Positions 24,852 through 45,479 of a stretch of DNA of 64,000 nt are shown in pieces. The stretch comes from an uncultured candidate division Zixibacteria bacterium (GTDB lineage: Bacteria; Zixibacteria; MSB-5A5; UBA10806). The first letter of the stretch is position 1. Each line of letters opens with the position of its first letter. A model generated the notes under the pieces. That model was not told the origin of the DNA. It did no database searches and saw only the letters and a program-made list of their open reading frames with translations. The translations under genes and the position numbers were made by a program. The DNA is taken from contig CAWDFP010000006.1 of assembly GCA_963801605.1 (NCBI GenBank), positions 1,664,879-1,728,878 of the forward strand. Direction: 5' to 3'.

Positions 24852-24894
24852 TAATTCCAGCACTCAGGTCGCAGGCGACCTGAGCTACGAATAT

Positions 24895-24948
24895 GGCATC
24901 CACCGCAATACGCTTCGGATGAAAATACAAAAATATCAAATTACATGA
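24895..24948 (+). pseudogene. relic 3' end of a sigma-54 activator gene (HTH tail fragment)
   Basis: GGCATCCACCGCAATACGCTTCGGATGAAAATACAAAAATATCAAATTACATGA encodes [17 protein letters not shown]-stop. It aligns almost base for base with 23258-23314, the 3' end of the intact regulator. Confidence 0.6.
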
Positions 24949-25081
24949 TGATGTTACGTCGGATACTCTAACCCGTTACCTGCAAGTTTTAAATATATCA
25001 AAAGATTTCATAGTAAATTCCGATAGATAGTCATAGATACGTCATTAAAGCGTAGACGATTAATATAGCATCGGAGGATAT

Positions 25082-26332
25082 ATGCGTAATTCTTCAAAGC
25101 AATTAAAGATATTCCTTCCCTTAGCGCTCATGATTATTTGTTTTAGCGTGACCGCTGTCGCACAGGATATCGAATTAGCAGGCAGCTATGCTACGCCGCA
25201 TTATGCGCGTAACGTAGCTGTTTCCGACAATCTCTGCTATGTAGCCAACGATTCTGCCGGCCTTCTTATCTTGAATGTATCCAATCCGGCCAGCCCGACG
25301 CTTCAAGGAAGTTACGATACTCCCGGATCTACACAAGGGCTTTTCGTTTGCGGCAGCTATGCCTATCTGGCCGATTACTCAACCGGACTTCAGATAATCA
25401 ATATATCCAATCCCTCAAGTCCGACATTTACTGGAAGCTATGATACACCGGGGTATGCGAATAAAGTTTTCGTATCCGGCCCTTATGCTTATGTGGCCGA
25501 TTTTAATACGGGGCTTCAGATTATCAATATCACCAATCCGGCCAGTCCCACCCGAATTGGAAGATATGATACGCCCGGGTATGCGATGGGTGTCTATGTA
25601 TCCGGCGCATACGCCTATGTCGCGGATGCAACAGCAGGGTTGCAGATAATCAATGTTTCCAATCCGGCAGTTCCGACAATTGCGGGTGCGTATACAACAC
25701 CTGATATCGCATACGATGTTTTCATCCAAGGCGATTATGCTTATGTGGCAGATAATTATGCCGGCGTTCAGATAATTAATGTATCCAATCCGACCAATCC
25801 CACGTTTACAGCAAGCTACGCAATCCCCGCCAACGCCTATGATGTCTTCATATCAAATAATTATGCCTATATTTCAACGTCTGACCACGGTCTTCAAATA
25901 GCAAACATTTCTGTGCCAGCTAATCCGGTGTTTGCAGCCGGCTATATTACGAATGGGATTTCATGGAATGTATTCGTTGCGGGCAATTACTGTTATGTGG
26001 CTGATCATTCTTCAATTGTTATTCTTTATTTCTATGCCACCGGCATCGATGATGATAATTCCATGCCAAACCAGTTTGCCCTCTCCCAAAACTACCCCAA
26101 CCCATTCAATGCCCAGACTACGATTAGCTACTCTCTGCCAAAGCAATCAACAGTCTCAATCGACATCTTTGATATCCTTGGCCGCAAGATAGAAACTATC
26201 GCCGAGGGGATTGAGCCGGCAGGAGATCATCAGACGATATGGGATGCCAGCGGTCAGTCATCGGGCATATATTTCTACAAAATAAAGGCTGATGATAAAG
26301 TTGAGACGAACAAGATGGTGTTGATGAAGTAA
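25082..26332 (+). CDS. LVIVD-repeat protein with T9SS-type C-terminal sorting domain
   Basis: Eight or so repeats (G(S/P)YAYVAD...GLQIINISNP(A/S)SPT). C-terminus LSQNYPNPFNAQTTISYSLP...SGIYFYKIKADDKVETNKMVLMK. Confidence 0.85.
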   Translation: MRNSSKQLKIFLPLALMIICFSVTAVAQDIELAGSYATPHYARNVAVSDNLCYVANDSAGLLILNVSNPASPTLQGSYDTPGSTQGLFVCGSYAYLADYSTGLQIINISNPSSPTFTGSYDTPGYANKVFVSGPYAYVADFNTGLQIINITNPASPTRIGRYDTPGYAMGVYVSGAYAYVADATAGLQIINVSNPAVPTIAGAYTTPDIAYDVFIQGDYAYVADNYAGVQIINVSNPTNPTFTASYAIPANAYDVFISNNYAYISTSDHGLQIANISVPANPVFAAGYITNGISWNVFVAGNYCYVADHSSIVILYFYATGIDDDNSMPNQFALSQNYPNPFNAQTTISYSLPKQSTVSIDIFDILGRKIETIAEGIEPAGDHQTIWDASGQSSGIYFYKIKADDKVETNKMVLMK

Positions 26333-26929: not shown

Positions 26930-26945
26930 TGGCATGATCTTTGTA
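26930..26945 (+). promoter_or_regulatory. sigma-54 (-24/-12) promoter candidate
   Basis: TGGCAT-GATCT-TTGTA versus consensus TGGCAC-N5-TTGCW. Spacing is correct but the -12 element is GT instead of GC. About 30 nt before the ATG at 26974. Confidence 0.4.
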
Positions 26946-26973
26946 TAGTTATTGGACGGAGATTATAGGAGGA

Positions 26974-27867
26974 ATGATGAACTTAGGTAGAAATTCAAAA
27001 AGCAAATGGATGGCGATGGGGGTATTTTTTGCCGCTATCGTGGCCTTAACGTTTACCGGATGTGATGTACACGAACATGGCGATCACTTTTATCCAAACG
27101 ATCAACAGCCGCCTCCGGTGCCAACCGGATTAACATCCACAACCATGGATCAAGCGGTTCTACTTACGTGGAATCCGGTCCGGATGGACCCCAATTTTGA
27201 CGATCTGGCTGGCTACAGGCTTTATAGAAGCAATGATAATTATACCTTCAGGCATATTGCCACGCTGAACCCTTCGGATTTGGAATATACCGACACCGGG
27301 CTGATAAACGGGCAAACTTATTATTATGCTATTTCATCATTTGATGATCATGGCAACGAATCGGAGCTTTCGAGCGAGAACGTATTTGATACTCCTCGTC
27401 CCGAGGGATTCGATGTTCGTATCTATAGTTATTTAGATCCTGTAAACTCGCACCTTTCCGGATTCGATTTTCCTGATCAGAGCCGTTTGCCCTGGAGCAG
27501 TCCGGCCTGCGATTTCTTCATGGAATATGACACCAGCCGCACGGTCCAGGCCTTTTTCATCTGGCTGGGTCATAACGGTTACCGCATTCAGGATATGGGC
27601 TATACCAGCAGTTTCGATGAAATCACTTTCGCGCCCGAAACCGGCTGGTCACAATTCGATTATGTGGAGGCGATTGCAGGACACACTTACGTAATCCTGA
27701 CGACCGATAACCATTACGCCAAAGTGCGGGTAACATCTTTATCGTATGATCCCACATTCAGCATGGTATTCGATTGGGGCTACCAGGTGGCAGTTGGTAA
27801 CCGCGAGCTTAAGATCACTCCAAGCGGCGGTGTTGCCGGCACTCCGAAAGGTATAGAGGTGCAGTGA
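26974..27867 (+). CDS. FN3-domain lipoprotein
   Basis: AGGAGG RBS then MMNLGRNSKSKWMAMGVFFAAIVALTFTGC (lipobox). FN3 pattern PVPTGLTSTT...LLTWNPV...YRLYRS...YTDTGLINGQTYYYAISSFDDHGNES. Confidence 0.8.
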   Translation: MMNLGRNSKSKWMAMGVFFAAIVALTFTGCDVHEHGDHFYPNDQQPPPVPTGLTSTTMDQAVLLTWNPVRMDPNFDDLAGYRLYRSNDNYTFRHIATLNPSDLEYTDTGLINGQTYYYAISSFDDHGNESELSSENVFDTPRPEGFDVRIYSYLDPVNSHLSGFDFPDQSRLPWSSPACDFFMEYDTSRTVQAFFIWLGHNGYRIQDMGYTSSFDEITFAPETGWSQFDYVEAIAGHTYVILTTDNHYAKVRVTSLSYDPTFSMVFDWGYQVAVGNRELKITPSGGVAGTPKGIEVQ

Positions 27868-28202
27868 TGAAACGGGCGCTAATTGGAGCCATCCTGCTGG
27901 CAGGATCGACAATATTTGCCGGATGCGGTTTCGTATTCGTGGCACGCAGCCAACCGTCCGCCTACCGTTCTGCCCCGGCCTACTGCTCCGATTGCCATTA
28001 CATCGGCGCCGGCTATACCGCTCATCGTCAATGCGGCCATTATGAAATCAAAGTAGCCCATGGCGGTTATTATTATCGTCCCTATGGACACGCTAAACAT
28101 AATGAGTTTAGATTTGTTAAATTTAACGGATCGGATCACAGAACCGAAAACCGATCCGATAGAAATTATGAGCCTGAGAAAGGCACAAGAGCAAGACGCT
28201 AA
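27864..28202 (+). CDS. small lipoprotein with a single CXXCH motif
   Basis: MMKRALIGAILLAGSTIFAGCGF lipobox, CSDCH at 27984-27998, His/Tyr/Arg-rich remainder. ATGA overlap with the upstream gene. Confidence 0.6.
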   Translation: MMKRALIGAILLAGSTIFAGCGFVFVARSQPSAYRSAPAYCSDCHYIGAGYTAHRQCGHYEIKVAHGGYYYRPYGHAKHNEFRFVKFNGSDHRTENRSDRNYEPEKGTRARR

Positions 28203-28248
28203 CGAGGCTGGGCCTCAGGCGTTCTACTGCGAAAGGCGGTGGATTAAA

Positions 28249-29853
28249 ATGAAGAAACTAAGAATCTTGGCGGCGGTGATATTCCTGGCCGCAATGACAA
28301 CGGGGGCTAAGGCGGATAACGACCAGGAGGATTATAACTCCTATGGTAACGGCGATGCTCCCCATGTCGATGTTTGGACCAATAAGGGATATGACGCCAC
28401 CTACAATTTCGGCGAGGACGTGGCGGTTTATTTCCGGGCCGATCAACAATGCTATGTCACGGTTTATGACATCGACCCATCCGGCGAAGTGAACGTCCTC
28501 TATCCCAATACCATGTCGGGCAGCACTTATGTTGAAGCCGACAGGGTTTACCGAGTCCCTGATACCAATGAAGATTTCAGGATGGAGGTTTCCGGTTCAT
28601 CCGGCACAGAGCAAATTTATGCGGTCGCCAGCTACGACTACATGAATCCGCCGGATTTCATGAAATACATTGGATATGATTACGGCAACGATCAATACTA
28701 CGACCCCAACTATTTCGTTACGCGTGTCAGAGGCAATCTGGATGATTTCACCAACAACATCGATAATCGCATTGCATCGGGACCATATTCAGTGGCACAC
28801 ACCAGATTTCTGGTAGACACCAATTATCGTCATCATCAGCATTACAGATATTGGGATTATGGCGCTTATGATGTCGGCTCGGTTTGGGTCGGCGCTGAAT
28901 GGCCGGGTTGCGAGGTTTGGATCGATGGCGTATTTTTCGGTATCGCTCCAATATTAGTACCTCAAGTACTCGTTGGATATCATTGGGTCTGGGTTTATTA
29001 TGGCGGTTATCCCTGCTATCAGCGTTACTTTTATGTGCCGGCGCACCGCAGATTCGATATCGATGCCCGTTTCGACGAGCATTTCAGAGATTACCGTTAT
29101 CGTCGCGATCATTTCCGCGGCTGGGTATTCGAGGAGAAACGGTATCGCAATGAGCCCGGATTTGCCGAGCGCGCCAGACAGGATCAGGAAAAGAATATCA
29201 GAGTCAGGTCGCTTCCGCCGACAGTTATTCGCGACTACGTCGACCGCGGCGTGATTACCAAGGATTCTCCGCTTGCCAAGAGGGTCAGATCCAATGAGGG
29301 GAACCAGCAGGTAAGGGGCCGAGTAGGACAGCCCGATCAGCCGAGGTTTGATCAGCCTCGAAATGGTCAGACTGGAAATCAGCAGCCAGGACGAGTTAAT
29401 CCAGGCAACGGAGATAAGAATGTCAGAGGACGGGGCCAAACCGGCATCGAAAAGCCCAATCGTCCGAACGAGGAAAATCCGAGAGTAATAATCCCGGAAA
29501 ATCCGAGAACTCCGGAAAAAGTGGCTCCAAATAATTCTGGACGGCGTACCCGTGAGGCCAAATTAATTGAAAAGCATGATACTACCTATAGACCATCCCA
29601 GGAGAACTCCAAGCCGTCGCAGCCAGCCAATGGCCAGTCCGATAATAACTACAAATCGTCAGAGCGATCGAGACCGACCGAGCGCTTTACCCAACCGCAA
29701 GAAAAACGCGATAATCAGCCATCTGATTCCGGAAAAGGCAGCGGAAACGTTGAACGTCAAAGGCCGTCGAACAATAGCGGCGATAAAGGCAATACTGAAA
29801 AGGAAACTAAGTCATCCGGAAGAGGTAACGGCAAGTCCGGCAGGGGAAGGTGA
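28249..29853 (+). CDS. secreted DUF4384-like/PEGA-like protein with long basic disordered tail
   Basis: ATG at 28249 gives signal MKKLRILAAVIFLAAMTTGAKA. VAVYFRADQQCYVTVYDIDPSGEVNVLYPN (DUF4384-like), CEVWIDGVFFGIAP (PEGA-like), then about 230 aa rich in R/Q/N/P/G/K. Confidence 0.7.
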   Translation: MKKLRILAAVIFLAAMTTGAKADNDQEDYNSYGNGDAPHVDVWTNKGYDATYNFGEDVAVYFRADQQCYVTVYDIDPSGEVNVLYPNTMSGSTYVEADRVYRVPDTNEDFRMEVSGSSGTEQIYAVASYDYMNPPDFMKYIGYDYGNDQYYDPNYFVTRVRGNLDDFTNNIDNRIASGPYSVAHTRFLVDTNYRHHQHYRYWDYGAYDVGSVWVGAEWPGCEVWIDGVFFGIAPILVPQVLVGYHWVWVYYGGYPCYQRYFYVPAHRRFDIDARFDEHFRDYRYRRDHFRGWVFEEKRYRNEPGFAERARQDQEKNIRVRSLPPTVIRDYVDRGVITKDSPLAKRVRSNEGNQQVRGRVGQPDQPRFDQPRNGQTGNQQPGRVNPGNGDKNVRGRGQTGIEKPNRPNEENPRVIIPENPRTPEKVAPNNSGRRTREAKLIEKHDTTYRPSQENSKPSQPANGQSDNNYKSSERSRPTERFTQPQEKRDNQPSDSGKGSGNVERQRPSNNSGDKGNTEKETKSSGRGNGKSGRGR

Positions 29854-29858
29854 TCTCC

Positions 29859-30398
29859 ATGAAAAAGAGACTGCTAATCGCAATTATACTGCTATCTTTT
29901 GTTCTCATGGGGCCGGCCCTGGCGGTCAAGAGAGTCTCCAAAAGCGGTGACCAGGCCACAGAACAAAAACAGGGCGCAACTACTGACAACCAGGCGCCCG
30001 ATAAAACTACTCCTCCTCCGGAGCGTCGTCAGGAAGGCAACAAGGACAATCAACAGCCGTCACAGCCCCAGCAGCCGCCGGGAAATGGGGGCAAAGATAG
30101 CTTTATTGATAGAGACGGCGATGGCATTAATGACAATCTGAAAAAGCCGCCTGAGACCGTTAAAAGAAAGCATGAAAGCCATCATGAAAAAGCCAGCGCG
30201 GCGGCGGCACGGTGCAGCCGGAAAAAGATCGAAGGTCGCGTTAAGGCGCGGCTAACAGGTGTATCTGCCTCCAAAGGCCCCGTCTATCATGTACGGGGCC
30301 TTAAACTTTTGGGGAATAGAGTTGACAAGACGGCTTCAAATGAGGATAATTATATTAACATAAGATACCGGGTCGTAGCGATATTTAAGGATATTTAG
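29859..30398 (+). CDS. secreted P/Q-rich protein (3' end uncertain)
   Basis: MKKRLLIAIILLSFVLMGPALA signal, P/Q-rich region, DRDGDGINDN calcium-binding-like motif. The listed frame reads through a terminator hairpin. The +1 frame stops at 30253-30255 just before it, so an indel (perhaps the A5 run at 30187-30191) is suspected. Confidence 0.5.
   Translation: MKKRLLIAIILLSFVLMGPALAVKRVSKSGDQATEQKQGATTDNQAPDKTTPPPERRQEGNKDNQQPSQPQQPPGNGGKDSFIDRDGDGINDNLKKPPETVKRKHESHHEKASAAAARCSRKKIEGRVKARLTGVSASKGPVYHVRGLKLLGNRVDKTASNEDNYINIRYRVVAIFKDI
30274..30310 (+). terminator. rho-independent terminator
   Basis: GGCCCCGT-CTATCATGT-ACGGGGCC followed by TTAAACTTTT. Confidence 0.6.
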
Positions 30399-30601
30399 CG
30401 TATCGGGAAATTGCGGGGCTTGATATACTCAAATCATACGTTCTGACCGGTTGTGTGGAACAGCTAACGTATTTATATCGTTAGATTAATTAGAACAATT
30501 AAATAGGCAGTTTTACTGAAGAGTTATTTCAAATTCGGGTGTTTTCGAAAAAGCTCAGTTGATAAAAAGCAACCACTAACAGATATGAAAGATGCGATAA
30601 T

Positions 30602-32281
30602 ATGCGAATGGCAAAATATATAGTAATAGTTTTATTTGGACTGTTATTGGCGTGCGGCGGAGTGGCCAAACGAAATATACAACCGGCAACTCCCAAAACA
30701 GCCGACAGTTTTGCATCCTACAACGCTTACGAACATTTCATTCAGGGCGATCTTTACGAACAGGCCGGCGATCTGGACAATGCCGTTATTGAGTACCGCA
30801 AAGCGTTGATACTCGATCCGGGTTCGGTTACAATTCGGCGAACGCTCTCCGAAATTTATTTCGATCAGAAAAAATATGACGATGCCGCTATTCTGCGTTC
30901 CGAGATAACTGAAAAGAATGTCGATGATTATAATTTTATAGGCGATTGCCTGCGCTATAACAAAGATCTCGAGAGTTCAGCCAAATTTTATATGCGTTCC
31001 CTCGATCTGGATTCAACCCAGTATATGACTCGGTCGTATGTAGCCAGAATAATGCAATATCTGGGAAAAGAAAAAGAAGCCGAGAAGGAATATAAAATTC
31101 TGGTTAACTACGCCCCCAGCAAAATCGAGGGTCTTCTTGATTTGGCGGGGTTTTATATCAAGGTCAACAAATTGGATAAAGCTCTGGGGACCTACTCCGA
31201 AGCTGCCGCTCTTGACTCGACCGATATAAGAGCGGTCGTTGGCATAGCCTCGGTATATATAGCCAAGGCCGATACAGCAAAATCGGACAGCATTTATTTT
31301 TCCATTGCTCAGAAAAATTGGGATGATACCGCCATGCTCGGCTCTCTCACCTCTTTGTTTTTCAGTCTGCATAATTATGAATATGCTGAAAAACTCGCTG
31401 CCCGGGTAGCTGAACTACTGCCAGACGATCTCGATTCCCAAAGGCGATATGCGATGATCGTTTTCGGCAACGGAAAATTCGCCCAGGCGGAAACTCTTAT
31501 GACCGCTCTGGAGCAAAAGGGCGGAGCCAACGCAGCAATCTATTATTACCTGGCCCGTATTAAACAGGAAAGCAAAGATTATCCGACTGCGGAAAACTAT
31601 TTCCGGAAATCACTTTCGCTGGCGGATACCGTTACCGATACCTGGATTAACCTGGCCCTGGTAGTTAATCAGCAAAAGCGCTACCCGGAATCACTTGAGA
31701 TAATGGGGGAGGCCATGCGGGCCGTGCCCCAGGATTCCGATGGAATTATTTTCTATACTGCTATTATTCATTCCCAAAACGAACACTACGATTTGGCCAA
31801 AGAAGGCTATCTGAGGCTGCTAAAATCAAAACCTGATGATATCGGCTTAAGATTCAGCCTGGCGTCGATGGATGAGCGATTGGGCAATATTGACGAGGCC
31901 GAACGGGGATTTAGATGGGTAATCCAAAAGGAGCCTAAAAATGCCATGGCTCTTAATTATTTGGGCTATATGTATGCCGATCAGGGTGTCAAACTCAAAG
32001 AAGCCAAGGGACTGCTCGAGAGGGCGTTGGCAATCGATCCCGAAAACGGCGCATACCTTGACAGCTATGCCTGGGTATTGTATAAATTGGGAAAATATGA
32101 TGAAGCGTTAGTCGAGATGAAAAAAGCCGTTAAAACCGAACTGGAAGATCCGGTAATTTACGATCACCAGGGTGATATCTATTCCGCCCTGAAACAGGAT
32201 GATTTGGCCCGGGAAAGCTGGGAAAAAGCGTTGCAACTTAGTCCAGATGATCAAGCTATTCGCGCCAAACTAAACAAGTGA
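30602..32281 (+). CDS. TPR-repeat lipoprotein
   Basis: MAKYIVIVLFGLLLACGG lipobox, then TPR-like repeats throughout (e.g. AVIEYRKALILDPGS, LERALAIDPENGAYLDSYAWVLYKLGKYDEAL). Confidence 0.85.
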   Translation: MRMAKYIVIVLFGLLLACGGVAKRNIQPATPKTADSFASYNAYEHFIQGDLYEQAGDLDNAVIEYRKALILDPGSVTIRRTLSEIYFDQKKYDDAAILRSEITEKNVDDYNFIGDCLRYNKDLESSAKFYMRSLDLDSTQYMTRSYVARIMQYLGKEKEAEKEYKILVNYAPSKIEGLLDLAGFYIKVNKLDKALGTYSEAAALDSTDIRAVVGIASVYIAKADTAKSDSIYFSIAQKNWDDTAMLGSLTSLFFSLHNYEYAEKLAARVAELLPDDLDSQRRYAMIVFGNGKFAQAETLMTALEQKGGANAAIYYYLARIKQESKDYPTAENYFRKSLSLADTVTDTWINLALVVNQQKRYPESLEIMGEAMRAVPQDSDGIIFYTAIIHSQNEHYDLAKEGYLRLLKSKPDDIGLRFSLASMDERLGNIDEAERGFRWVIQKEPKNAMALNYLGYMYADQGVKLKEAKGLLERALAIDPENGAYLDSYAWVLYKLGKYDEALVEMKKAVKTELEDPVIYDHQGDIYSALKQDDLARESWEKALQLSPDDQAIRAKLNK

Positions 32282-33957
32282 AACTATCCAATCTATTTTT
32301 CGGGCTGTTTGCCTCAAGTCTAATACTTACCTCTTGCGCCGTTAGGGAAGCCCCTCAGGGTGGCCCCGAGGATAAGACGCCTCCGAGCATCATGGATATT
32401 GAACCTGCCGATGGCAGCACCATGTTGCCGCTCGATGCATCATTTAAGGTTACTTTTTCCAAAGGAATGCAACAGGAAAATACGCAAAGCGCTATTTTTC
32501 TCTCTCCGGTATTCTGGGGTTATCCCGGATTTAAGTGGTCCGGCCGGACACTGAGTGTTATCCCTCCGGAAAATCTAAAAGCAAATACGACATATATTCT
32601 GACCATTGGAGCCGGAGCGATTGATATTCATGGGAATAAAATTGGCCAATCCCGAAGCTATGCATTTTCAACCGGGCCGGCGATCGATAGCGGCTCAATC
32701 TCCGGAGCAATTTTTTCTACGGATGGCCAGCGTATCGTTTACGATATTTGGGCCTACAGCCTGGGTGATACAGCGGTATCGAATTTTTGGAAGAGGATTC
32801 CCGATTATGCAACTCAGGTTGATTCCACGGGAGGATTTAAGATCGAGCATCTGGGAAACAATCGCTATCTAATTCTCGCTATCAACGATAAAAACGATGA
32901 TCTTTTCTGGGACCCATCATCCGAGGAGCTTGGCCTACCACCGGGAATCCTGAAATTGACAGGGGCAGAAATACCTAAGGGGATTATCTTCAGACCTGCT
33001 CGACGGGACACCTCAACATCCTATATTACCAGAGCAGTTCCTCTTAGTAATCAGCGATTGGCGGTAGAGTTTTCTCAGCAACCCGTTAAGGAATTGATGT
33101 TGAATTCCAAATCTTATCTTATCAGATATAGCGATTCCCTGCTAAATTTCGGGACTCCCTATGTTGGTGAAGGCGGAGCTCTGATTCTCGAAACAGACAA
33201 GCAAATTCCCGGACAGAGCTACCAGCTCATTCCAGTTGCCCTGATTAATACCTGGGGCATGCCGTTCGATACCACTGGCATAAGATTTACAGGAATCGCA
33301 CAGGCAGATACGTCGGCTCCCAGGCTATCATTAATATTTCCACCTGACGGCTCAACCGGAGTGTATGAGGATAGTGTTGTAGAATTGACCTTTACTAAAA
33401 GAATCCAGGTATTGACATTTCCGACGGCTGTTTCGGCCGTGGCTGATTCAACTGATACGCTCCGATTCGTTTCGACTTGGGTCACACCGAATCAAGTCCG
33501 ATTGCGCTTTCCAACGCGAATTCCCCGGGAACGAAAGATTCATCTTGTTTTATCGCCCAAGAAAATTATCGATATTTTTCAAAATCCGATGGCTGATAGC
33601 GCCCTGGCTTATAGCTTCAGGCTTCCGCCTGCCGATACCGCCGGCAGCGTTGTTGCATCCCTCGAAACCGGGCAAATCGGGAATATAAACGGTCTTTTAT
33701 CCCAATATGGGCGTGAAGAGGAGCCCTATCAGGGGCGTTTTGATCCCTCCGGACAGCTAAACCTCGATTTTATAATGCCGGGTATTTACAGATTTGAATT
33801 TTTCGATGATAGCGACAGCAACGGACAATGGTCGCCCGGTGATATTTCACCATTCAGGCCGGCCGAAAGATTTTCATTCCTGGCCGATACAATCAAAGTC
33901 CGCTCCCGTTGGAGTACGGATATTGGAGCAGTGTCGCTTCCCGAAATCAACCGCTAA
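32278..33957 (+). CDS. Ig-like (SbsA/Big_5-type) domain lipoprotein
   Basis: GTG start overlapping the upstream stop. LILTSCAV lipobox. DKTPPSIMDIEPADGSTMLPLDASFKVTFSKGM and a second DTSAPRLSLIFPPDGSTGVYEDSVVELTFTKRI module. Confidence 0.75.
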   Translation: MKLSNLFFGLFASSLILTSCAVREAPQGGPEDKTPPSIMDIEPADGSTMLPLDASFKVTFSKGMQQENTQSAIFLSPVFWGYPGFKWSGRTLSVIPPENLKANTTYILTIGAGAIDIHGNKIGQSRSYAFSTGPAIDSGSISGAIFSTDGQRIVYDIWAYSLGDTAVSNFWKRIPDYATQVDSTGGFKIEHLGNNRYLILAINDKNDDLFWDPSSEELGLPPGILKLTGAEIPKGIIFRPARRDTSTSYITRAVPLSNQRLAVEFSQQPVKELMLNSKSYLIRYSDSLLNFGTPYVGEGGALILETDKQIPGQSYQLIPVALINTWGMPFDTTGIRFTGIAQADTSAPRLSLIFPPDGSTGVYEDSVVELTFTKRIQVLTFPTAVSAVADSTDTLRFVSTWVTPNQVRLRFPTRIPRERKIHLVLSPKKIIDIFQNPMADSALAYSFRLPPADTAGSVVASLETGQIGNINGLLSQYGREEEPYQGRFDPSGQLNLDFIMPGIYRFEFFDDSDSNGQWSPGDISPFRPAERFSFLADTIKVRSRWSTDIGAVSLPEINR

Positions 33958-34009
33958 TAAATATTGACATATTTTGACAATTGCATATCTTCTGCCTGAG
34001 GCTACGAAA

Positions 34010-35590
34010 ATGGCAGCGAGAACCAAATTGGTAGCGGCCTCCCTATCTGCAATAGTACTCTTCTACGCTTTTGGGGCGCTTGCCGCAAATCCGGATGTTG
34101 TCTACCAGACGACCTTCAGTCCCAGAGTTCCGATTCTGGGAAGTGTTAAAATACGTCTGCAAAACGACAGCATCAGCCCTATCCTGATTTATGGGCAGGA
34201 TTTGAACGGCAAACGCTGGCCACTTGCATTTAGCACTTCTCGACGAGATATAATCATCAATGCCAATCCCGTTCCATTTGAAATGGCGGATCTATTTCTG
34301 GTTTATAGTACCAAGTTACACCAAAATAGGATCGATAGGGCTGCGGTATTTGTCAACAATATTGAGGCCCCAGGAGAGTGGGACAATCCGGAACCCTTGA
34401 TTAACGGCGTTCTCACCGATGTTGTCGATTCACTTTCATTCGGGTTGGTCGGAGTCGCTGATACTCATTCCGTATCTTTTACCGTTAATAATAACCCCAT
34501 TAGTGATTCCGGAGCCGTCTGGATCATTTTCCCGTCAGGATTCGATATTTCAAACGTCGATGGCGTTCTTTATTCCGATAATGACACCACAAATGACGGG
34601 GAAGAATATTACCCGATAATTGAATCTGTCTCAGCCAACGAACATTCGCTTTTATTTCAATTTGCCCCATCGCGTCAGCAAGCATCTCCACTATCCCGAA
34701 TTAACTTAAAATTCTGGCCCGTTATTAACGATACGGTAGCTCAAAGCTACACAGTCATAGTGATGACCACTAATCGAGCCGGAGAAATCGATAATGATCC
34801 GGCGGAGTCGCAATCATTTAACCTTGTCCCTGAATCGCTTGATCGTATTAGCATCAATCCCGATACTGCCATGACACTTCGGGCGGGAGCCATAATCAAT
34901 TTCACGGCATCCGGTACTGATATATATAATAATCCGCTCCCAAACCTGCTTTTCGATTTTAATATCACAACGGATTCCTGCGGGAATATTGCCGCTGGGG
35001 CATTTCAAGCCTTGAAATTGGGAAGCACCTACGTCACTGTGTCGGCTTTGGGCCTTACGGATTCATCTGGTTTGATTACCGTTATACCCGGACCGTTGGA
35101 TCATTTTAATTTTACGGGATACCCGTCGCAGGACACCGCCGGCCGAACCTTCCGTCAAAATATTGTAGTTGAGGCCAGTGATGCCGAAAACAATCGCAAA
35201 TATGACTACTACGGTTTGCTGTGGTTTAATACTGGAGACAATATCGACGATCTCCCGTTCAGAATCGCCAACCCCGATTCCTTTACAGTCCTCGATTCAG
35301 GTAGAGTAGAATATCCCGGAGCAGGTTTCTCACTTAAAAGAGCTGGTATCAGGTATATCCACGCCACCAATGGCAGCATCGAGGCGGTTTCGCCTCCGAT
35401 AAGAGTCTTTCCCGCGGCCATAAACAGCTTCAGAATATCGACCGGAACTTCCCATACGGCAGGTGAGAGTTTCCCTGTTTTGGTTGATAGCGCTCTTGAT
35501 GCTTATGGGAATTTGACATCGGGAGAAGTTGTGGTTTCCGATTCGACCGGCGGCGGAAGTTCACCCGGACAGCATTCCTCCGACCTTTAA
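34010..35590 (+). CDS. giant surface protein, segment 1 of 4 (signal peptide, Big_2-like and Big_1-like Ig repeats)
   Basis: ATG at 34010 gives MAARTKLVAASLSAIVLFYAFGALAANP. Ig-like modules follow (ISINPDTAMTLRAGAIINFTASGTDIYNNPL...). Ends ...VVVSDSTGGGSSP, then a frame break at CCCGG 35564-35568. Confidence 0.75.
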   Translation: MAARTKLVAASLSAIVLFYAFGALAANPDVVYQTTFSPRVPILGSVKIRLQNDSISPILIYGQDLNGKRWPLAFSTSRRDIIINANPVPFEMADLFLVYSTKLHQNRIDRAAVFVNNIEAPGEWDNPEPLINGVLTDVVDSLSFGLVGVADTHSVSFTVNNNPISDSGAVWIIFPSGFDISNVDGVLYSDNDTTNDGEEYYPIIESVSANEHSLLFQFAPSRQQASPLSRINLKFWPVINDTVAQSYTVIVMTTNRAGEIDNDPAESQSFNLVPESLDRISINPDTAMTLRAGAIINFTASGTDIYNNPLPNLLFDFNITTDSCGNIAAGAFQALKLGSTYVTVSALGLTDSSGLITVIPGPLDHFNFTGYPSQDTAGRTFRQNIVVEASDAENNRKYDYYGLLWFNTGDNIDDLPFRIANPDSFTVLDSGRVEYPGAGFSLKRAGIRYIHATNGSIEAVSPPIRVFPAAINSFRISTGTSHTAGESFPVLVDSALDAYGNLTSGEVVVSDSTGGGSSPGQHSSDL

Positions 35591-36902
35591 TAGCATTATC
35601 GTTTCCTCATCGGGAAATGGCAGCGCCCTGCAAACCCTTACCAATGCCGTTCCAACTTCCCTTAAGGGGGTGTCGGTTGGAGCTGGTATTCGAGCGGCTA
35701 CTGCAGAATTTCAAGTGGTGCCCGGTGCTGTGGGGCGATTCGAACTGGCCGGATATCCTGACTTGGTTGTTGCCGGCGATCCCTTTCCTCCAACCAGAGT
35801 CAATATTTTTGATATTTTGGGAAATATTAAGACCAATTTTGATGGTTGGATTTATTTTGAATGCGACGATCCACAGGCAATACTCCCTTGTGTTATATCA
35901 TCGCCCTGTCATCTACAGGGTGGAGTCTACAATGTCCCCGCAGGCGCCATATCGCTTCGAACCGCAGGCGTACAATCTATTGTGGCCACGGATGGAAGTC
36001 ATTCCACTCCGTCAAATGCTATTCATGTCGCTCCTTCAACTATCAGCCAATTTACTCTTACAGCCACAACATCTATAGCGGCAGGGACTCCCTTCGGCGC
36101 ATCCGTAAGCGAAGCCCGAGACATTTGGGGAAATTTATCAAATGGTACGATAGCCATTTCTGCGGCTTCGGGCGGCGGACCGTCGCCAAATGGCACTTTA
36201 CCGAATTTTGCTCCTGTTACCGTCGTATCCGGATTAGGAATTGCCTATCAAACCTTATACAATGTTAATATCACGGTTCTCAGGGGAACACTCGATAGCA
36301 TATCCGCGCTAACCGATCCGATTTCAGTCGGCCCGGGCGCCTTAGGCGGTTTTGATTTGACGGTTTCATCGCCTCAAGTGACCGAAATACCTTTTAGAAA
36401 TGCGGCCGGGCTAACCGCGCGCGATCGTTATGGCAATTTGAAAACCAATTTTGATGCCTCTCTTGATTCCGTGGTAATATCATCCACGGGGGGAGGCCTG
36501 ATGAGCAATAATATTTTGCGATCTCCGGGCGATTTTATAGGCGGTATCGCTAATCTGGTAAATACGGGCACTACCTATCATGGTCCCGGCGGTTTAATGT
36601 CGTTCCGGGCAACATCCCGTTCAGGTAATTCCGGCTTATCCAACCAGGTTGATATGAACGCCATCCAGTGTTCAAATTTCATTATCGATCAACTTTCGGT
36701 AGCTCAGGGCGATACCGTAACCGGTACTATCTCGGTAGATAATGTAGCCGGTAGAAATGTCAGCATCACAAATCTATATGTGTTCGATGGCACTGGATGG
36801 TCACCGCAGCTCGAACCTGATTCTCTGTTACCCGCATTATTGGCCCGGACGAAACTAAAATATTTGGATTCCGACTTCCAATTCCGGATATCCTGCCGAT
36901 AG
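35529..36902 (+). CDS. giant surface protein, segment 2 of 4 (Big_1-like repeats)
   Basis: Continues the repeat (...DSIPPTFNSIIVSSSGNGSA parallels the later ...SGGGPSPNGTLPNFAPVTVVSGLGIA). Modules of the form PGxxxxFxL...AGxPF...DxxGN. Confidence 0.75.
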   Translation: MWFPIRPAAEVHPDSIPPTFNSIIVSSSGNGSALQTLTNAVPTSLKGVSVGAGIRAATAEFQVVPGAVGRFELAGYPDLVVAGDPFPPTRVNIFDILGNIKTNFDGWIYFECDDPQAILPCVISSPCHLQGGVYNVPAGAISLRTAGVQSIVATDGSHSTPSNAIHVAPSTISQFTLTATTSIAAGTPFGASVSEARDIWGNLSNGTIAISAASGGGPSPNGTLPNFAPVTVVSGLGIAYQTLYNVNITVLRGTLDSISALTDPISVGPGALGGFDLTVSSPQVTEIPFRNAAGLTARDRYGNLKTNFDASLDSVVISSTGGGLMSNNILRSPGDFIGGIANLVNTGTTYHGPGGLMSFRATSRSGNSGLSNQVDMNAIQCSNFIIDQLSVAQGDTVTGTISVDNVAGRNVSITNLYVFDGTGWSPQLEPDSLLPALLARTKLKYLDSDFQFRISCR

Positions 36903-36949
36903 GAACGCACTATCTGATTGCAGCCGCGCACGGCGCTTATGACCAGGAC

Positions 36950-37642
36950 GTGGTTTCCGATACTCTGTCTGCTTTCCCGGATTCGGTTCAGGTAAGAGCC
37001 CGATCGATCATCTCATATGTTTCCGGTTCTCTGCATCCTGATACGCTCTCTTCCGGTTCCACTTATTCTTTGAATCTGCAACTTATAAATGTTGGAGCCG
37101 CGTCGCTGGCCCTTTATGATTCCTCATATATTTATTTTTCCGACGGTTCGAATAATTATAAAGCCGATATATCGGCCCCGGCTTATTTGACTCCAAATAA
37201 TCCAGTTCTCATAACATTTGATGCGGCGCTCGTCCCGCCAGGATTTACTCCCGGAACTTACACTCCTGTTTTCCAATATTTTGCCAATGAAAATGATCAT
37301 TTCCGTTCGGGACAGGTTATTTTATCTGATCAGATACTAATTCAAAGCGCTCCTGAGATTTCATTTCACGGCCAGCTCAATATCCACAGCCTGGTCGCAG
37401 GACAAATTGTTTCGTTTGCTTTGGATGTTCTTAACAGCGGCCAGGCGGATTTCATCATTAACCATCAAGCCACCAGAATATCCCTCAGCGATTCCCAGCG
37501 TGAGTTTGTCGCTTATTCCGACACAACCAATGGAGTAAGAACGGATACGCTTCATAATGGGGTAACGACATTCCATTTCGCGCCAACGGAATTTCCATCT
37601 AATTTCACATACCGGTATGTATCTTCCTTTAGTTACCTTTGA
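36950..37642 (+). CDS. giant surface protein, segment 3 of 4 (CARDB-like repeats)
   Basis: This frame is already open from 36821 (...GPDETKIFGFRLPIPDILPIGTHYLIAAAHGAYDQDVVSDTL...), overlapping the end of segment 2. CARDB-like pattern YSLNLQLINVGAASLAL. Confidence 0.7.
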   Translation: MVSDTLSAFPDSVQVRARSIISYVSGSLHPDTLSSGSTYSLNLQLINVGAASLALYDSSYIYFSDGSNNYKADISAPAYLTPNNPVLITFDAALVPPGFTPGTYTPVFQYFANENDHFRSGQVILSDQILIQSAPEISFHGQLNIHSLVAGQIVSFALDVLNSGQADFIINHQATRISLSDSQREFVAYSDTTNGVRTDTLHNGVTTFHFAPTEFPSNFTYRYVSSFSYL

Positions 37643-39923
37643 CGGACGGCAAAATGGTTACGACACGAGCTTCACTTTCTATCTCGGGATCGATTCTGTA
37701 TGGGTAATGTCTCCGGCTCTGATACGCATCGATTCAACTAATACCATTTCTCGTAACGCACCTTTTGTAAACATTGCTCAGCCCTGCTCGATCAAAGTTA
37801 CCATTGAAAATTTGGGATGGGAAAGGGCTGACTCCTTTTATATTCACCTGGCCACCGATGGCGCGTCTCAATTTCCAGATTCCATGCTTGTATCTTCGCT
37901 CGATGGCCGCCATAATCAAAATATCGTATTCCACTTAGCCGCTGGAGCATCATCGAATCCCAACGAGATCTTTAATAGCTCCGTTTCCGGAGGAAAAGGA
38001 AACTTAAGCGGGAATCCCCTCCAAATCGGGCCCCCGCTCGATAATAATGCTCTCCTGATTACTGAAATTCCAGCCGACTTAGCTCTTTCTTCAATTAATA
38101 TCATTGGTCCGCCCGGTGCTCTCGATAGCACTATCTCCATCGAACAGCCGCTTACTGTTTCGGTTACGGTGCGAAATTTGGGTGAGGCCGATATTTCCCA
38201 ACCAAGAATTCTGACTCTATATCCGGGGGATGCCAATTGGGGAGTTGATTCTCTGCAGCGCGATTACATTCTTGGCCAGCCGGTGATCTGGCATCTGACT
38301 GCGCCCCCAATCGCTGTGGATTCCGCAGGGTTTTCGATCGGAATCTCCGGCAGCCCAATAGACTTGAACGACGGCTCGCCGGCCATCGGACCGAACGGTG
38401 TCTCGCTGATATGGTTTGCTATAGAAAACAGAGCATCGATAGACCACTCTGCTTCAATTACGGAGCCTGCCGGAGCCGCTGACGGTATATTGTCAACGGA
38501 TCAAACTATCATCGTTCGCGACATTTTGAGTCCGCACGGACTTTACCGAAGCAAGGCTGTTCAGTTAATCCTTCCCGACGGTTTCACAACTCAGGATTCG
38601 CTTGTTAAATATCCATCATCAGATACAGCATTCTGGCATCTGCGGGCGCCTTCCGCGGCCACTGTCGATACCGCTAATATCGCATGTTGGATTTTTGACC
38701 TCAACAGGGGAGACTCATCAGAAGCGCCGTCTATTTCAATTCCACTTACAGTAGTCGATGCCGCTGAGCTTCAAATTTCGACAAGTATCATCGGCCCGCC
38801 GAGCGCTCAGGATGGTATCATCGAACCTGGCGGGCATTTTCAGTTTGAGGCCATGGTTAGGAATCTCGGTCAATCCGGAGTCAGCGCCGGCAGGATGACT
38901 ATTCAAACCGGACGCTCCGATATTACCACTGATATTTACAGCAAAAACTTCGTAGTTGGAGAACCAATCGATTGGACTATTAATTTGCCCAACGAGGAAA
39001 TTCCGTTGCCAGTCCCGATTTGGGTTACTATTGATTCCATCCCAATCGAAGAAAATACAAATTTACCGGCTCACGTTTTAATTGATTCCGCCGGCGTTTC
39101 GATAGTAGTCAGAGAGCTTTTCCCCAGACTGGTGCTGGCGGGTATTACTTCGAATCATTCAGGTTCAGCTTTCAAAGGTCAGCAGTTGGGTTTTGCAACT
39201 ATCGATCTACAAAACCGTGATTTCGGCGGCAATTTTGATATTGGAATAATGAGCCTTTCGGTAATAGTCAACAATAATCCGGATTTGCCTGCCGGACAGC
39301 TTCTTTCCAGTGCGACTTTAGGATTCGGTTCTGAAAGCACTATCTCCGGGATATTCCAGGGCGATACGATCCTATTTAGTCAATTTGATACCTTGATGTT
39401 AGGTCCATCGCAGACAATATCCTTTAATCTTAATTTTGAAATTAATCCCGCCACTTCAGTTCGAGATTTTACCGTCCAATTTGCCTGGAATTTTGTGCAG
39501 GCCGGGGTGTTTGAAAACGGCACATTTGTGGAAAATATAACGCCAGTTATGCCCCGGGGCGAATCGGTAAGTTGGCAGAGTGAACCATCAGCGATACTTG
39601 AGCCGAACTTTACGGCATCGCTTTCCAGCTATCCTAATCCTTTCAGTCCTCAGGATGGCGGTACGACAATTGGATATTTTCTACCAGCAGCTTCAAATCT
39701 TGAAATTAGGATATTTACCCTCTTAGGCGAACTGGTTTGGACTAAAACTATATCAGCAGCCGATCCGTTAGGCGCTGCCGGTCTCCATAGCGGTTCAAAT
39801 GCGCTTCTATGGAATGCTACCAACGATGTCGGCAACGAAATCCGCTCGGGTGTTTATATCTGTATGGTTAGAAATTTAACTTCAGGGGAGGAGGCAAAAT
39901 TCAAAATCGCAGTTGTAAAATAG
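37617..39923 (+). CDS. giant surface protein, segment 4 of 4 (CARDB-like repeats and FlgD-Ig/T9SS-type C-terminal domain)
   Basis: Repeats such as IKVTIENLGWERADSFYIHL, LTVSVTVRNLGEADIS, FEAMVRNLGQSGVSAG. C-terminus SSYPNPFSPQDGGTTIGYFLPAASNLEIRIFTLLGELVWTK...SGVYICMVRNLTSGEEAKFKIAVVK. Confidence 0.8.
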   Translation: MYLPLVTFDGRQNGYDTSFTFYLGIDSVWVMSPALIRIDSTNTISRNAPFVNIAQPCSIKVTIENLGWERADSFYIHLATDGASQFPDSMLVSSLDGRHNQNIVFHLAAGASSNPNEIFNSSVSGGKGNLSGNPLQIGPPLDNNALLITEIPADLALSSINIIGPPGALDSTISIEQPLTVSVTVRNLGEADISQPRILTLYPGDANWGVDSLQRDYILGQPVIWHLTAPPIAVDSAGFSIGISGSPIDLNDGSPAIGPNGVSLIWFAIENRASIDHSASITEPAGAADGILSTDQTIIVRDILSPHGLYRSKAVQLILPDGFTTQDSLVKYPSSDTAFWHLRAPSAATVDTANIACWIFDLNRGDSSEAPSISIPLTVVDAAELQISTSIIGPPSAQDGIIEPGGHFQFEAMVRNLGQSGVSAGRMTIQTGRSDITTDIYSKNFVVGEPIDWTINLPNEEIPLPVPIWVTIDSIPIEENTNLPAHVLIDSAGVSIVVRELFPRLVLAGITSNHSGSAFKGQQLGFATIDLQNRDFGGNFDIGIMSLSVIVNNNPDLPAGQLLSSATLGFGSESTISGIFQGDTILFSQFDTLMLGPSQTISFNLNFEINPATSVRDFTVQFAWNFVQAGVFENGTFVENITPVMPRGESVSWQSEPSAILEPNFTASLSSYPNPFSPQDGGTTIGYFLPAASNLEIRIFTLLGELVWTKTISAADPLGAAGLHSGSNALLWNATNDVGNEIRSGVYICMVRNLTSGEEAKFKIAVVK

Positions 39924-39928
39924 CGCTT

Positions 39929-41749
39929 TTGGCTGTGGGATTTATCCTTTCCCTGACCTCTCTTGCTTTTTGCCAGGGTGACGCCGGACGCGAGTCGCCG
40001 TTTTCGCTGGGTGCCGGCGCTCGCGGTATGGGTATGGGACGGTCGTTTGTCTCGTTAGGCGGGGATGCGTCCTCCGCATTTTCTAATCCGGCTGCAACCG
40101 CGACGATTGACCGTAGCGAGTTCATGGCTTTTCACACCTCGCTATTTATGAGCACCAATTATGATTGCCTGGCGCTGGCTCATCCGATAGGTGTTCTGGG
40201 AGTCTTTACCGTTTCGGCTGGACGGTTAGGGACTGGTAGTTTTACCGGACGCGATGCATATAACCGTCCCAACCAGGAAATTTCCGCATCCAATACGCAT
40301 CTGGGTTTATCATACGGCCGTGACGTAGGACGCGGTTTTGCCGCTGGCCTAACGCTAAAGGGAGTGGGGCAAGAGATTGGAAACAACTCCGGATACGGGT
40401 TTGGCCTGGACCTGGGCTTTCAGTATCGTCCAACAATGGCTAAGGGGCTGATTTTAGGGGTAGCATTTAACGATCTAATTCGTCCAAGTATAAAACTAAT
40501 TAATATTAAAGATAAATATCAAACCGAATCACGATACGGCATTTCATATAACAGGAAATTTTCAACCAGTGTTGCCGCCACCGGGGTATTCGAGGTTGAT
40601 AAAATCTCGGGAAGAAAAACGCACATTCACCCTGGCCTGGAATTTGCCTTCTATAACGATTACGCCCTTCGTATAGGTTATGATAAAGATCGCCCCACAT
40701 TCGGGGCCGGTATCGCCTACAGCGTTTTCCGTCTTGATTATGCTTACGAGGATATTCAGTATCTGGGCGGAAGTCATCGAGTTTCTTTGAGTATCTCTTT
40801 CGGCAAATCGGTTCGACGCAGTCAGACTGAGTTAATTGCCGAAGCAGTCCAGAGCGAAAAAGCAAACTGGCAAAAATCGCTCGATGAGAAAAAGATGTAC
40901 GATTTCGCCGCTTACATATATACCGCGGACAGCCTTCGAGGCCTTAATCAGTATCAGGATGCCATGTTTTTCTATGAACGCGCCCTGGCGTCTAATGAAA
41001 CATCGACCCGCGCCCGTACAATGTCTGACAGCATGATGACGCTGATTGTTGCTAATGCAGCATCTACCGCCCGCGATCAAAAGCGAGAGGACCTCATATC
41101 CAAAAGGGTTACGGCCGCGCTTGATGATTTCAAAGCGGGACGATTCAACGAAGCTATCGACCAATATGAATTGGCGCTTGAAATCGACCCAATGAATAAA
41201 AATGTTTCGGATCTGTTAAGTTCGGCCCGCGCCACTCGCCAGACGGAAATTGATAAAACCAGAGCCAACGCTCATTCCTTGCAGGCTAAAGGAGACTTCC
41301 CCGGCGCTCTGATCGCCTGGAATAGGGTTTTGGTGCTGGAGCCGACTGATCCCGATGCTCTGAGTAATATCGAAATTGCAAAAAAGGCGATTAATGTCAA
41401 CTCCCTGATGGCATCGGCGATAACCGCTATGAGCGAACAAAGATATTCCGATGCCGCCACTTTATTACAGCAGGCTCAAACAATCCGGCCTAACGACTCT
41501 ACCATTAAATCGCTTTTAGCCGAATCGAAAGCCAAGGCCGCACCAGTTACCAGCCTGGCCGATATCAAAGCTAACTCCGAGAACTGGGCTACCTACTTAA
41601 GTGGGCTTGAAAGCTACCAGGCAAGCAACTATAAAAAGGCGCTCGAAAGCTGGGAAAGCCTTCAGCAGTATTATCCGAATAACCCCGATCTTGAAAAGAA
41701 TATAAATCAGGCCAAACAGAGACTTTCTACCGAGGGCGGGAAAGATTAG
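39929..41749 (+). CDS. PorV/PorQ-like outer-membrane beta-barrel fused to a C-terminal TPR domain
   Basis: Signal-like N-terminus. GARGMGMGRSFVSLGGDASSAFSNPAA motif and alternating beta-strand segments up to ...HRVSLSISFGK. The last ~300 aa are TPR-like (ALEIDPMNKNV, VLVLEPTDPDAL, LQQYYPNNPDLE). Start codon uncertain (TTG 39929). Confidence 0.65.
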   Translation: MAVGFILSLTSLAFCQGDAGRESPFSLGAGARGMGMGRSFVSLGGDASSAFSNPAATATIDRSEFMAFHTSLFMSTNYDCLALAHPIGVLGVFTVSAGRLGTGSFTGRDAYNRPNQEISASNTHLGLSYGRDVGRGFAAGLTLKGVGQEIGNNSGYGFGLDLGFQYRPTMAKGLILGVAFNDLIRPSIKLINIKDKYQTESRYGISYNRKFSTSVAATGVFEVDKISGRKTHIHPGLEFAFYNDYALRIGYDKDRPTFGAGIAYSVFRLDYAYEDIQYLGGSHRVSLSISFGKSVRRSQTELIAEAVQSEKANWQKSLDEKKMYDFAAYIYTADSLRGLNQYQDAMFFYERALASNETSTRARTMSDSMMTLIVANAASTARDQKREDLISKRVTAALDDFKAGRFNEAIDQYELALEIDPMNKNVSDLLSSARATRQTEIDKTRANAHSLQAKGDFPGALIAWNRVLVLEPTDPDALSNIEIAKKAINVNSLMASAITAMSEQRYSDAATLLQQAQTIRPNDSTIKSLLAESKAKAAPVTSLADIKANSENWATYLSGLESYQASNYKKALESWESLQQYYPNNPDLEKNINQAKQRLSTEGGKD

Positions 41750-45473: not shown

Positions 45474-45479
45474 GGGGAT

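Follow-up and report, generated by a model that had tools for sequence, protein, structure and literature searches.

The giant gene and the barrel gene behind it

We analysed a 64,000-nucleotide (nt) stretch of DNA from an uncultured Zixibacteria bacterium (contig CAWDFP010000006.1; hereafter the window), which at 26941-41749 holds a series of genes for exported proteins. All sizeable open reading frames (ORFs) of this segment lie on the + strand, and according to their translations the products carry a lipobox or a signal peptide. An initial annotation of the same DNA had described eight consecutive same-strand genes for exported proteins, several of them with overlapping stops and starts. 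Strand, export signals and spacing (overlaps or gaps of 5-16 nt) hold up in our analysis, except that the largest gene is not a single ORF. Most of the labels given to the individual proteins were likewise confirmed by profile searches against Pfam and NCBIfam, the fibronectin type III (fn3) match of the first gene being only weak. The series ends with a gene for a giant protein carrying a domain typical of the T9SS (type IX secretion system) and a gene for a membrane barrel fused to tetratricopeptide repeats (TPRs), and this pair is our main subject:

34010-39923, + strand: giant secreted protein, conceptual product of ~1969 amino acids (aa); four ORFs, three frameshifts
39606-39923, + strand: C-terminal sorting domain of the giant, T9SS type A-like, last 105 residues (TIGR04183)
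39929-41749, + strand: PorV/PorQ-family barrel (residues ~60-291) followed by a ~300-aa C-terminal TPR domain (NF033709, AlphaFold2 model)

The giant gene, taken by the initial annotation as one adhesin of ~2000 aa, consists of four ORFs in two alternating frames (33974-35590, 35529-36902, 36950-37642 and 37617-39923; 538, 457, 230 and 768 aa). In tblastn comparisons the four ORFs are jointly colinear with a single 1876-aa gene (CP070813.1) and a single 1972-aa gene (locus L004; L numbers denote the loci of relatives), indicating three frameshifts in the window's copy. The first, at ~35565, is a +1 shift with an extra base in TCACCCGGAC, the second, at ~36840, is a -1 shift with one base missing, and the third, at ~37605, is either one extra base (+1) or a duplication of GTAT; each position is accurate to a few bases. 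Conceptual repair yields a protein of 1969 aa, and the single-ORF orthologues of relatives span 1876-2605 aa. In the source annotation, too, the gene is split, with a 768-aa protein of its own (P0049) for the last piece. Since no frameshift relative to orthologues was found in 12 neighbouring conserved genes (~19.5 kb), the shifts are concentrated in the giant gene, and this copy appears to be either inactivated or mis-assembled.

Homologue searches with the last ORF of the giant, and then with a 14-sequence profile, retrieved three proteins only, and a sequence-only search of the PDB returned no match. Self-BLAST of the repaired giant detected no repeats; a repeated module is shown by cross-matches between the pieces and by extra copies in locus L002. 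There (Zixibacteria RBG_16_53_22, 2172-9989) the giant reaches 2605 aa and carries additional tandem copies of a ~210-310-aa module that corresponds to residues 13-320 of the window's second piece. Module copy number differs between giant orthologues, and the proteins partnered with the barrel range from 841 to 3131 aa.

The C-terminal domain of the giant scores 25.6 bits on the type A sorting-domain model TIGR04183 (cut-off 23) when taken alone. Its membership of type A is nevertheless borderline, because within the 768-aa ORF it reaches only 19.1 bits against the same cut-off; Pfam Por_Secre_tail gives 17 bits against 27. All of the 12 partner tails compared match TIGR04183 at E<=0.1 (best 5e-7), and only one matches the type B model TIGR04131 (E=0.072); matches to Pfam CHU_C are weak (17.7 bits against 27). 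The domain sits at the extreme C-terminus, contains the type A motifs and is nearly invariant among orthologues (SSYPNPFNPR...IFTLLGELVW...W.GKND.G.EIRSGVYIC...KFKIAVVK). Aligned with the Por_Secre_tail domains of two proteins encoded further upstream in the window (an FG-GAP and an LVIVD protein), it shares PNPF, I.Y.L, IF..G, G..V, W...SG.Y and the terminal K. It is conserved in partners as distant as those of L015, L016 and L017. Taken together, these comparisons point to a T9SS-type, type A-like sorting domain with a predicted role in export; the initial annotation had already labelled it a FlgD-Ig/T9SS-type domain, and a C-terminus that was no sorting signal would have spoken against its reading of the locus. 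All 12 partner tails also match the C-terminal domains of PorZ and PorU, on which the window's tail scores best. As whole-protein assignments for the giant, PorU (NF033707) and PorZ (NF052228) were tried and rejected: only the tail aligns, with model positions ~1000-1076 of PorU and ~660-757 of PorZ, at 15-26 bits against cut-offs of 260-420.

The barrel gene starts 5 nt after the stop of the giant gene, as in all close relatives. Its product matches the PorV/PorQ family of NCBIfam (NF033709) over residues 27-291 with 111.2 bits, above the cut-off of 90. An AlphaFold2 model built on 46 homologues (mean predicted local distance difference test score, pLDDT, 84.4) has a barrel of ~14 strands between residues 63 and 291, behind it a helix of 44 residues and then helical hairpins up to residue 602. 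A Foldseek search of the PDB ranks 8gl6_F (E=9e-13, TMt 0.63) and 6h3i_F (5e-10, TMt 0.66) highest, followed by FadL and TodX. From the length of these two chains (~345-367 aa) and the entry titles, we take both to be PorV in T9SS translocon complexes of Flavobacterium johnsoniae. Profile match and predicted fold thus agree that the barrel is of PorV/FadL type. The earlier label of a PorV-like barrel fused to TPR repeats is borne out in this way, and the lack of PorV/FadL similarity that would have undercut it was not found. As the even number of strands places both termini on the periplasmic side, the TPR domain should be periplasmic. Sequence-only PDB searches with the barrel protein returned TPR matches only, and exact-sequence look-ups of this protein, of the TPR lipoprotein encoded upstream and of P0001 gave no match.

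Homologues in 48 clusters are 45-85% identical to the window's barrel protein, and those with an organism name come from Zixibacteria metagenome-assembled genomes. A phmmer search with the barrel domain returned 7381 representative clusters at E<=0.001. Among the best 150 representative matches most are 550-700 aa long with an N-terminal barrel, and C-terminal TPRs were present in 10 of 10 sampled. These searches bring out a large branch within the PorV/PorQ family that is uncharacterised so far; in many of the members closest to the window's protein the barrel is fused to presumably periplasmic TPR repeats.

Conservation of the pair

Close relatives were represented by nine Zixibacteria loci; deeper ones were collected by phmmer with the barrel domain and by a metagenome scan with a 14-sequence barrel alignment, which returned 80 loci. 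A hidden Markov model (HMM) built from 12 partner tails was then searched over the six-frame ORFs of these loci, and barrel genes of ~600 aa were classed as H-type. An ORF with the tail domain stops just before the H-type barrel gene in 19 of 19 assessable loci, with barrel identity down to 24-32%. The same arrangement was found upstream of 24 of the 27 barrels with any C-terminal extension and of 22 of the 49 barrel-only genes, although the tail domain is rare in these loci (59 of 2639 six-frame ORFs). Thus, the gene-neighbourhood check proposed by the initial annotation shows cargo and barrel to be co-conserved down to ~25% barrel identity.

The pair also persists where its surroundings have changed. 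In L016 it is kept behind genes for RNase Y, YmdB and FolD, with neither a TPR nor an Ig-like (Big_5) lipoprotein. In L017 a 3116-aa giant is followed by a 1361-aa barrel protein with long TPRs and then by ExbB-ExbD-ExbD-TonB. Among barrel-only pairs, the partner in L094 is a bona fide PorU (423.7 bits, cut-off 420), and another partner is a subtilisin-like protease with the tail domain. The order of cargo followed by barrel is therefore a habit of the family in general, and the Zixibacteria pair represents one deep branch with fused TPRs.

Several of these loci show further features. The genes at 14408-17091 of L017, directly behind its giant/barrel-TPR pair, encode ExbB, two ExbD and a TonB_C protein, which hints that some carriers of the barrel family are coupled to a Ton-like motor. 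A metagenome contig, L057, has three PorV/PorQ-like barrel genes in a row (2865-10831), two of them each behind its own gene for a tail-bearing protein of ~850-900 aa, an arrangement of tandem cargo/carrier cassettes. In L003 (contig_23817) and L008 (contig_295) many genes of the locus are frameshifted; such breaks are common in some assemblies of the group.

Genes flanking the pair

Upstream of the pair lie two lipoprotein genes that are shared with relatives, preceded by four genes of narrower distribution and, further up, by two cargo genes. Downstream follow signalling and polysaccharide genes:

23475-26332: genes for an FG-GAP and an LVIVD protein, both canonical T9SS cargo (Por_Secre_tail above cut-off in both)
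26941-27867, + strand: fn3-like lipoprotein (lipobox LTFTGC; fn3 match E=0.0016, 19 bits, below cut-off 25)
27864-28202, + strand: 112-aa mini-lipoprotein with one CXXCH motif, CSDCH (lipobox IFAGC; weak NrfH match, E=0.0011)
28249-29853, + strand: secreted protein with DUF4384 and PEGA domains and a basic disordered tail (Pfam DUF4384 5e-22, PEGA 2.7e-5)
29850-30398, + strand: P/Q-rich secreted protein (signal peptide)
30602-32281, + strand: TPR lipoprotein, 559 aa (TPR families, lipobox LLLAC)
32278-33957, + strand: Big_5 (Ig-like) lipoprotein, 559 aa (Big_5 1.9e-26, lipobox ILTSC), overlapping the stop of the TPR lipoprotein gene
41809-46193, + strand: kinase/sensor/HAMP/PP2C/helix-turn-helix (HTH) protein of 974 aa, ParA/BcsQ-like ATPase and STAS protein (Pfam, NCBIfam)
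46141-53875, + strand: GGDEF diguanylate cyclase, Wza-type exporter, Wzz, TPR protein, BY-kinase and initiating sugar transferase (Pfam, NCBIfam)

In the nine Zixibacteria loci the order is TPR lipoprotein, Big_5 lipoprotein, giant, barrel-TPR, kinase/HAMP/PP2C/HTH, ParA-like ATPase and STAS, continuing with GGDEF cyclase, Wza, Wzz, TPR protein and BY-kinase. The TPR lipoprotein keeps its synteny throughout this clade and in L025. The Big_5 lipoprotein is present in all nine loci, in L025 and in L089, and is absent from L016, L023, L028 and L029; a sequence-only PDB search with it gave no match. Both lipoproteins appear to be accessory partners of the pair that are missing in deeper relatives. 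The initial annotation had likened the TPR lipoprotein to PorW/SprE, but we found generic TPR matches without specific similarity: no such model was among the NCBIfam matches listed (25 of 31), no SprE chain was among the best 60 PDB matches, the best PDB match by sequence was the TPR lipoprotein PA4667, and a PrsT-like match stayed below its cut-off.

The remaining upstream genes lie outside the conserved core. Orthologues of the fn3 lipoprotein occur in L007-L010 only, those of the DUF4384/PEGA protein in L006-L010 only, and weak ones of the P/Q-rich protein in L006, L007, L009 and L010, so that all three are specific to one subclade; they are absent at the equivalent position in CP070742.1, CP070813.1 and L012. 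Where sequence further upstream is available (L007-L010), this set comes after genes for a histidine kinase and a sigma-54 activator. The CXXCH mini-lipoprotein has no homologue in the locus of any relative, L007-L010 leave no space for one, and it appears to be specific to the lineage of the window. Thus, the unit is not the 15-kb block of eight genes that had been proposed: four of its members are restricted to a subclade or to the window, the TPR and Big_5 lipoproteins are lost in deeper relatives, and the conserved stretch runs on downstream into the partner-switch/GGDEF and Wza-Wzz-BY-kinase genes.

Downstream, the kinase/HAMP/PP2C gene is next after the H-type barrel in all close loci and in 11 of 11 distant loci that have a full-length H-type match and visible downstream sequence (35-44% identity); no barrel-only locus has it behind the barrel. 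Its kinase is of the anti-sigma type and fused to the phosphatase, and a weak sCache_3_2 match at residues 222-312 lies between two hydrophobic segments, a stretch that we infer to be a periplasmic Cache-like sensor. Scores on the SiaA and SiaD models, 95.3 bits against 700 (3e-27) and 147.7 against 290 (4e-43), do not place these proteins in SiaABCD. The STAS partner switch probably controls the GGDEF cyclase.

The GGDEF/Wza/Wzz/BY-kinase block is syntenic in the Zixibacteria loci and in L016, L021, L028 and L029. The scores on XrtA/PEP-CTERM models fall short throughout (PrsT 174.7 against 312, export 128.9 against 180, chain-length 154.8 against 279, kinase 134.6 against 231), and the Pfam/NCBIfam scans of the window gave no exosortase family match. 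In the Wza protein a hydrophobic segment is retained at the C-terminus; as it could cross the outer membrane, a separate porin is probably not needed.

Some further observations concern the surroundings. A DUF362 gene (298-313 aa) lies directly before the TPR lipoprotein gene in relatives (L001 17-913, L007 7333-8274), where the window has a 200-nt gap (30398-30602). The two cargo genes at 23475-26332 form an insertion found in the window only, with the gene for the sigma-54 activator on one side and that for the fn3 lipoprotein on the other, and are missing from this place in relatives; the histidine kinase and the activator, which has no receiver domain, lie at 19961-23314. Pattern scans for promoters, terminators and sigma-54 sites gave counts at chance level. 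A sigma-54-like -24/-12 element, TGGCAGCAAATTTGCA, lies at 52902-52917, ~60 nt before the sugar transferase gene (52976), the count for this pattern not exceeding chance. Past the polysaccharide genes, envelope-type genes run on for at least 10 kb: the segment 54183-62405 encodes a PEGA+DUF5683 protein, a 717-aa fn3 protein, a TMEM260-like glycosyltransferase, two type IV pilin-like proteins and a prepilin peptidase. At the other end of the window, at 6000-8400, lies an islet of low G/C content (0.34 compared to ~0.46 elsewhere) with small ORFs only, one of which (6368-6718) matches the TIR-like domain of Thoeris ThsB (E=1e-5); the islet may have been acquired for defence.

A dedicated carrier as the favoured reading

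The very strong co-conservation of cargo and barrel makes a dedicated module the best reading of the pair, as the initial annotation had suggested when it spoke of an attachment or display module for one giant protein. By analogy to described systems, we propose, with a probability of about 0.6, that the barrel is a PorV-family carrier or anchor dedicated to one giant surface protein within a biofilm-type locus. Given the variable copy number of the repeat module and the context of the locus, the giant most likely acts as an adhesin in aggregation or in the matrix and is produced alongside exopolysaccharide.

In the T9SS, PorV is the carrier of type A cargo: its loops bind type A tails at the SprA translocon, it leaves together with the substrate, and the step that requires energy is the extraction of this carrier-substrate complex (PMC10994853). 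PorQ anchors PorZ by an uncleaved C-terminal domain (PMC10947112), and SprF and PorP anchor the type B proteins SprB and PG1035, the TPR-containing lipoprotein PorE joining the complex (PMC9143113). Following these examples, the giant would cross the inner membrane by Sec, and the barrel encoded beside it would catch its C-terminal domain with the extracellular loops, in the way that PorV takes up type A cargo at the SprA translocon. The barrel would then stay on the uncleaved tail and hold the giant at the surface, as in PorV-PorU, PorQ-PorZ and SprF/PorP-SprB/PG1035. The fused TPR domain could serve as a periplasmic handle that docks the upstream TPR and Big_5 lipoproteins, the sensor domain of the downstream kinase-phosphatase, or both. 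The pair is part of a larger conserved locus of biofilm type, in which the partner switch with STAS probably controls the GGDEF cyclase and the genes for polysaccharide export (Wza, Wzz and BY-kinase) come next.

The closest precedents differ from the pair in several ways. With porU-porV it shares the NF033709 family (PorV, or LptO), the best structural match, a 14-strand FadL-like barrel and a barrel gene directly behind that of a large protein with a T9SS C-terminal domain, uncleaved in porU-porV and predicted to be so here. However, the window's barrel scores far below the PorV equivalog, is much smaller, has short loops and carries a ~300-aa, presumably periplasmic TPR domain which PorV lacks; its partner is a repeat-rich giant without a sortase domain. 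Unlike PorV, which carries cargo in general, the window's barrel appears to be dedicated, and its host lies outside Bacteroidota. In PorQ-PorZ of Porphyromonas gingivalis a PorV-family barrel likewise anchors one surface protein by a retained C-terminal domain (PMC10947112). The window's barrel scores higher on PorQ than on PorV, and the giant's tail scores best on the PorZ C-terminal domain; still, the PorQ equivalog score is not reached, PorQ has no TPR fusion, and PorZ is a beta-propeller carrier of anionic lipopolysaccharide without similarity to the giant outside the tail. The genes porQ and porZ are not known to be neighbours in P. gingivalis.

In SprB-SprF and PG1035-PorP-PorE a dedicated barrel is encoded next to a giant adhesin and required for its anchorage (PMC9143113), and the upstream TPR lipoprotein and the fused TPR domain of the window locus echo PorE. 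PorP and SprF are distinguished by family, the window's barrel being of PorV/PorQ type with a type A-like cargo tail and TPRs fused to the barrel. Like SprE/PorW, the TPR lipoprotein is an outer-membrane TPR lipoprotein near T9SS-type parts, but it has 559 aa, compared to SprE of F. johnsoniae, which reaches at least residue 870 (PMC10994853), and it is absent in deeper relatives that keep the giant-barrel pair. The signalling genes resemble SiaABCD of Pseudomonas aeruginosa in their HAMP-PP2C phosphatase, anti-sigma-type kinase, STAS-type partner and GGDEF cyclase. They differ by scores far below the equivalogs, by the fusion of kinase and phosphatase in a membrane protein with HTH, and by the inserted ParA-like ATPase. 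We know of no link of SiaABCD to a surface adhesin/carrier pair. The combination, which the initial annotation did not recognise as described, thus relates to a known principle, that of a dedicated barrel (PorU-PorV, PorZ-PorQ, SprB-SprF, PG1035-PorP); a TPR-fused PorV-family carrier beside its giant is a variant of it.

Several results weigh against a dedicated T9SS-type carrier. On the side of the barrel, the scores lie below the equivalog cut-offs of PorV (NF033710, 26.6 against 250), PorQ (NF033711, 61.8 against 220) and PorV2 (58.2 against 325), and the domain has only ~230 residues, with loops much shorter than those of PorV. On the side of the giant, its gene is frameshifted in the window, and its tail has two insertions (~7 and ~5 residues) compared to canonical type A tails. 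Profile searches found no recognisable adhesin domain besides a weak Pfam match to CARDB, and a model of the giant from three sequences is all-beta in secondary structure, with a pLDDT of 50.7 that makes it unusable. As the initial annotation had also stated, core T9SS genes are missing here: Pfam/NCBIfam scans of most window ORFs of at least 150 aa detected no GldK, GldL, GldM, GldN or SprA family and no PorU. The abstracts that we found restrict the T9SS to Bacteroidota, and we found no paper linking Zixibacteria or related phyla to it. Synteny across the clade can be partly historical instead of functional, and all mechanistic steps, binding, secretion and localisation alike, are predicted by analogy.

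The frameshifts could mean that the window's copy is a decaying remnant in which real mutations have turned the giant into a pseudogene. Such decay would concern this copy and not the function of the family. Three shifts in the 5.9-kb giant gene compared to none in ~19.5 kb of flanks would have a chance of (5.9/25.4)^3, ~0.01, under uniform error; one site can be read as a tandem duplication of GTAT, and a further loss in the lineage is that of the DUF362 gene, which relatives have before the TPR lipoprotein gene. However, all three shifts are +/-1 and lie beside short homopolymer runs, in a contig of 1.9 Mb, and L003 and L008, apparently long-read assemblies of relatives, are full of such breaks. 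The four pieces are all open, their identity to the orthologue in L004 (53-61%) is similar to that of neighbouring genes, and repeat-rich or strain-variable genes attract consensus errors. We therefore give a pseudogene somewhat less than an even chance.

Two other explanations deny the giant the role of the barrel's cargo. The barrel-TPR protein could be the outer-membrane porin or scaffold of the adjacent exopolysaccharide system, comparable to AlgK/AlgE, PgaA, BcsC or PelBC, with the giant as a mere neighbour. It combines TPRs with a barrel, lies inside the conserved GGDEF/Wza/Wzz/BY-kinase locus near a BcsQ-like ATPase, and has PelBC among its weak Foldseek matches (rank 39, template modelling score 0.23-0.33). 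Fold and HMM, however, are of PorV/FadL type and not those of a 16-18-strand polysaccharide porin, the domain order is opposite to that of BcsC, PgaA and PelB, and Wza could itself span the outer membrane. The tight link to the gene with the C-terminal sorting domain persists in L017, whose available sequence has no exopolysaccharide genes, and in barrel-only relatives PorU or a protease bearing such a domain is the partner. We rejected the barrel as a polysaccharide porin and regard this explanation as very unlikely. Alternatively, the giant could belong to the machinery, the pair being a diverged form of the PorU-PorV or PorZ-PorQ attachment complex and acting on other sorting-domain proteins to process them, e.g., the FG-GAP and LVIVD proteins. 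The gene order indeed equals that of the PorU-barrel pair in L094, and the tail prefers PorZ and PorU C-terminal domains. Against this, none of the four pieces matches a Peptidase_C25/PorU catalytic region or a PorZ propeller, the tail alone aligning; length varies from 841 to 3131 aa through module copy number, as is typical of surface adhesins; and the insertion with the FG-GAP and LVIVD genes is found in the window only. A role in the machinery is likewise very unlikely.

A dedicated carrier with a fused TPR domain would also permit a more far-reaching idea, in which it forms the outer-membrane end of a surface-sensing relay: load or binding on the giant would pass via the TPR domain to the Cache-like domain of the kinase/HAMP/PP2C protein, which would set how far the STAS partner is phosphorylated and so act on the GGDEF cyclase and polysaccharide export. 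This is compatible with a sensor gene behind every checkable TPR-bearing barrel of ~600 aa and behind no barrel-only relative, and is put forward as a speculation that is unlikely to hold. If true, a T9SS-type cargo/carrier pair would serve outside-in signalling in a phylum without a described T9SS.

If the pairing works as proposed, the dedicated-carrier logic of T9SS adhesins would extend to the PorV family and to other phyla of the Fibrobacterota-Chlorobiota-Bacteroidota group. The fused TPR domain would then provide a defined handle by which engagement of the carrier can be reached from the periplasm, and the giants would be candidate biofilm adhesins of uncultured sediment bacteria.

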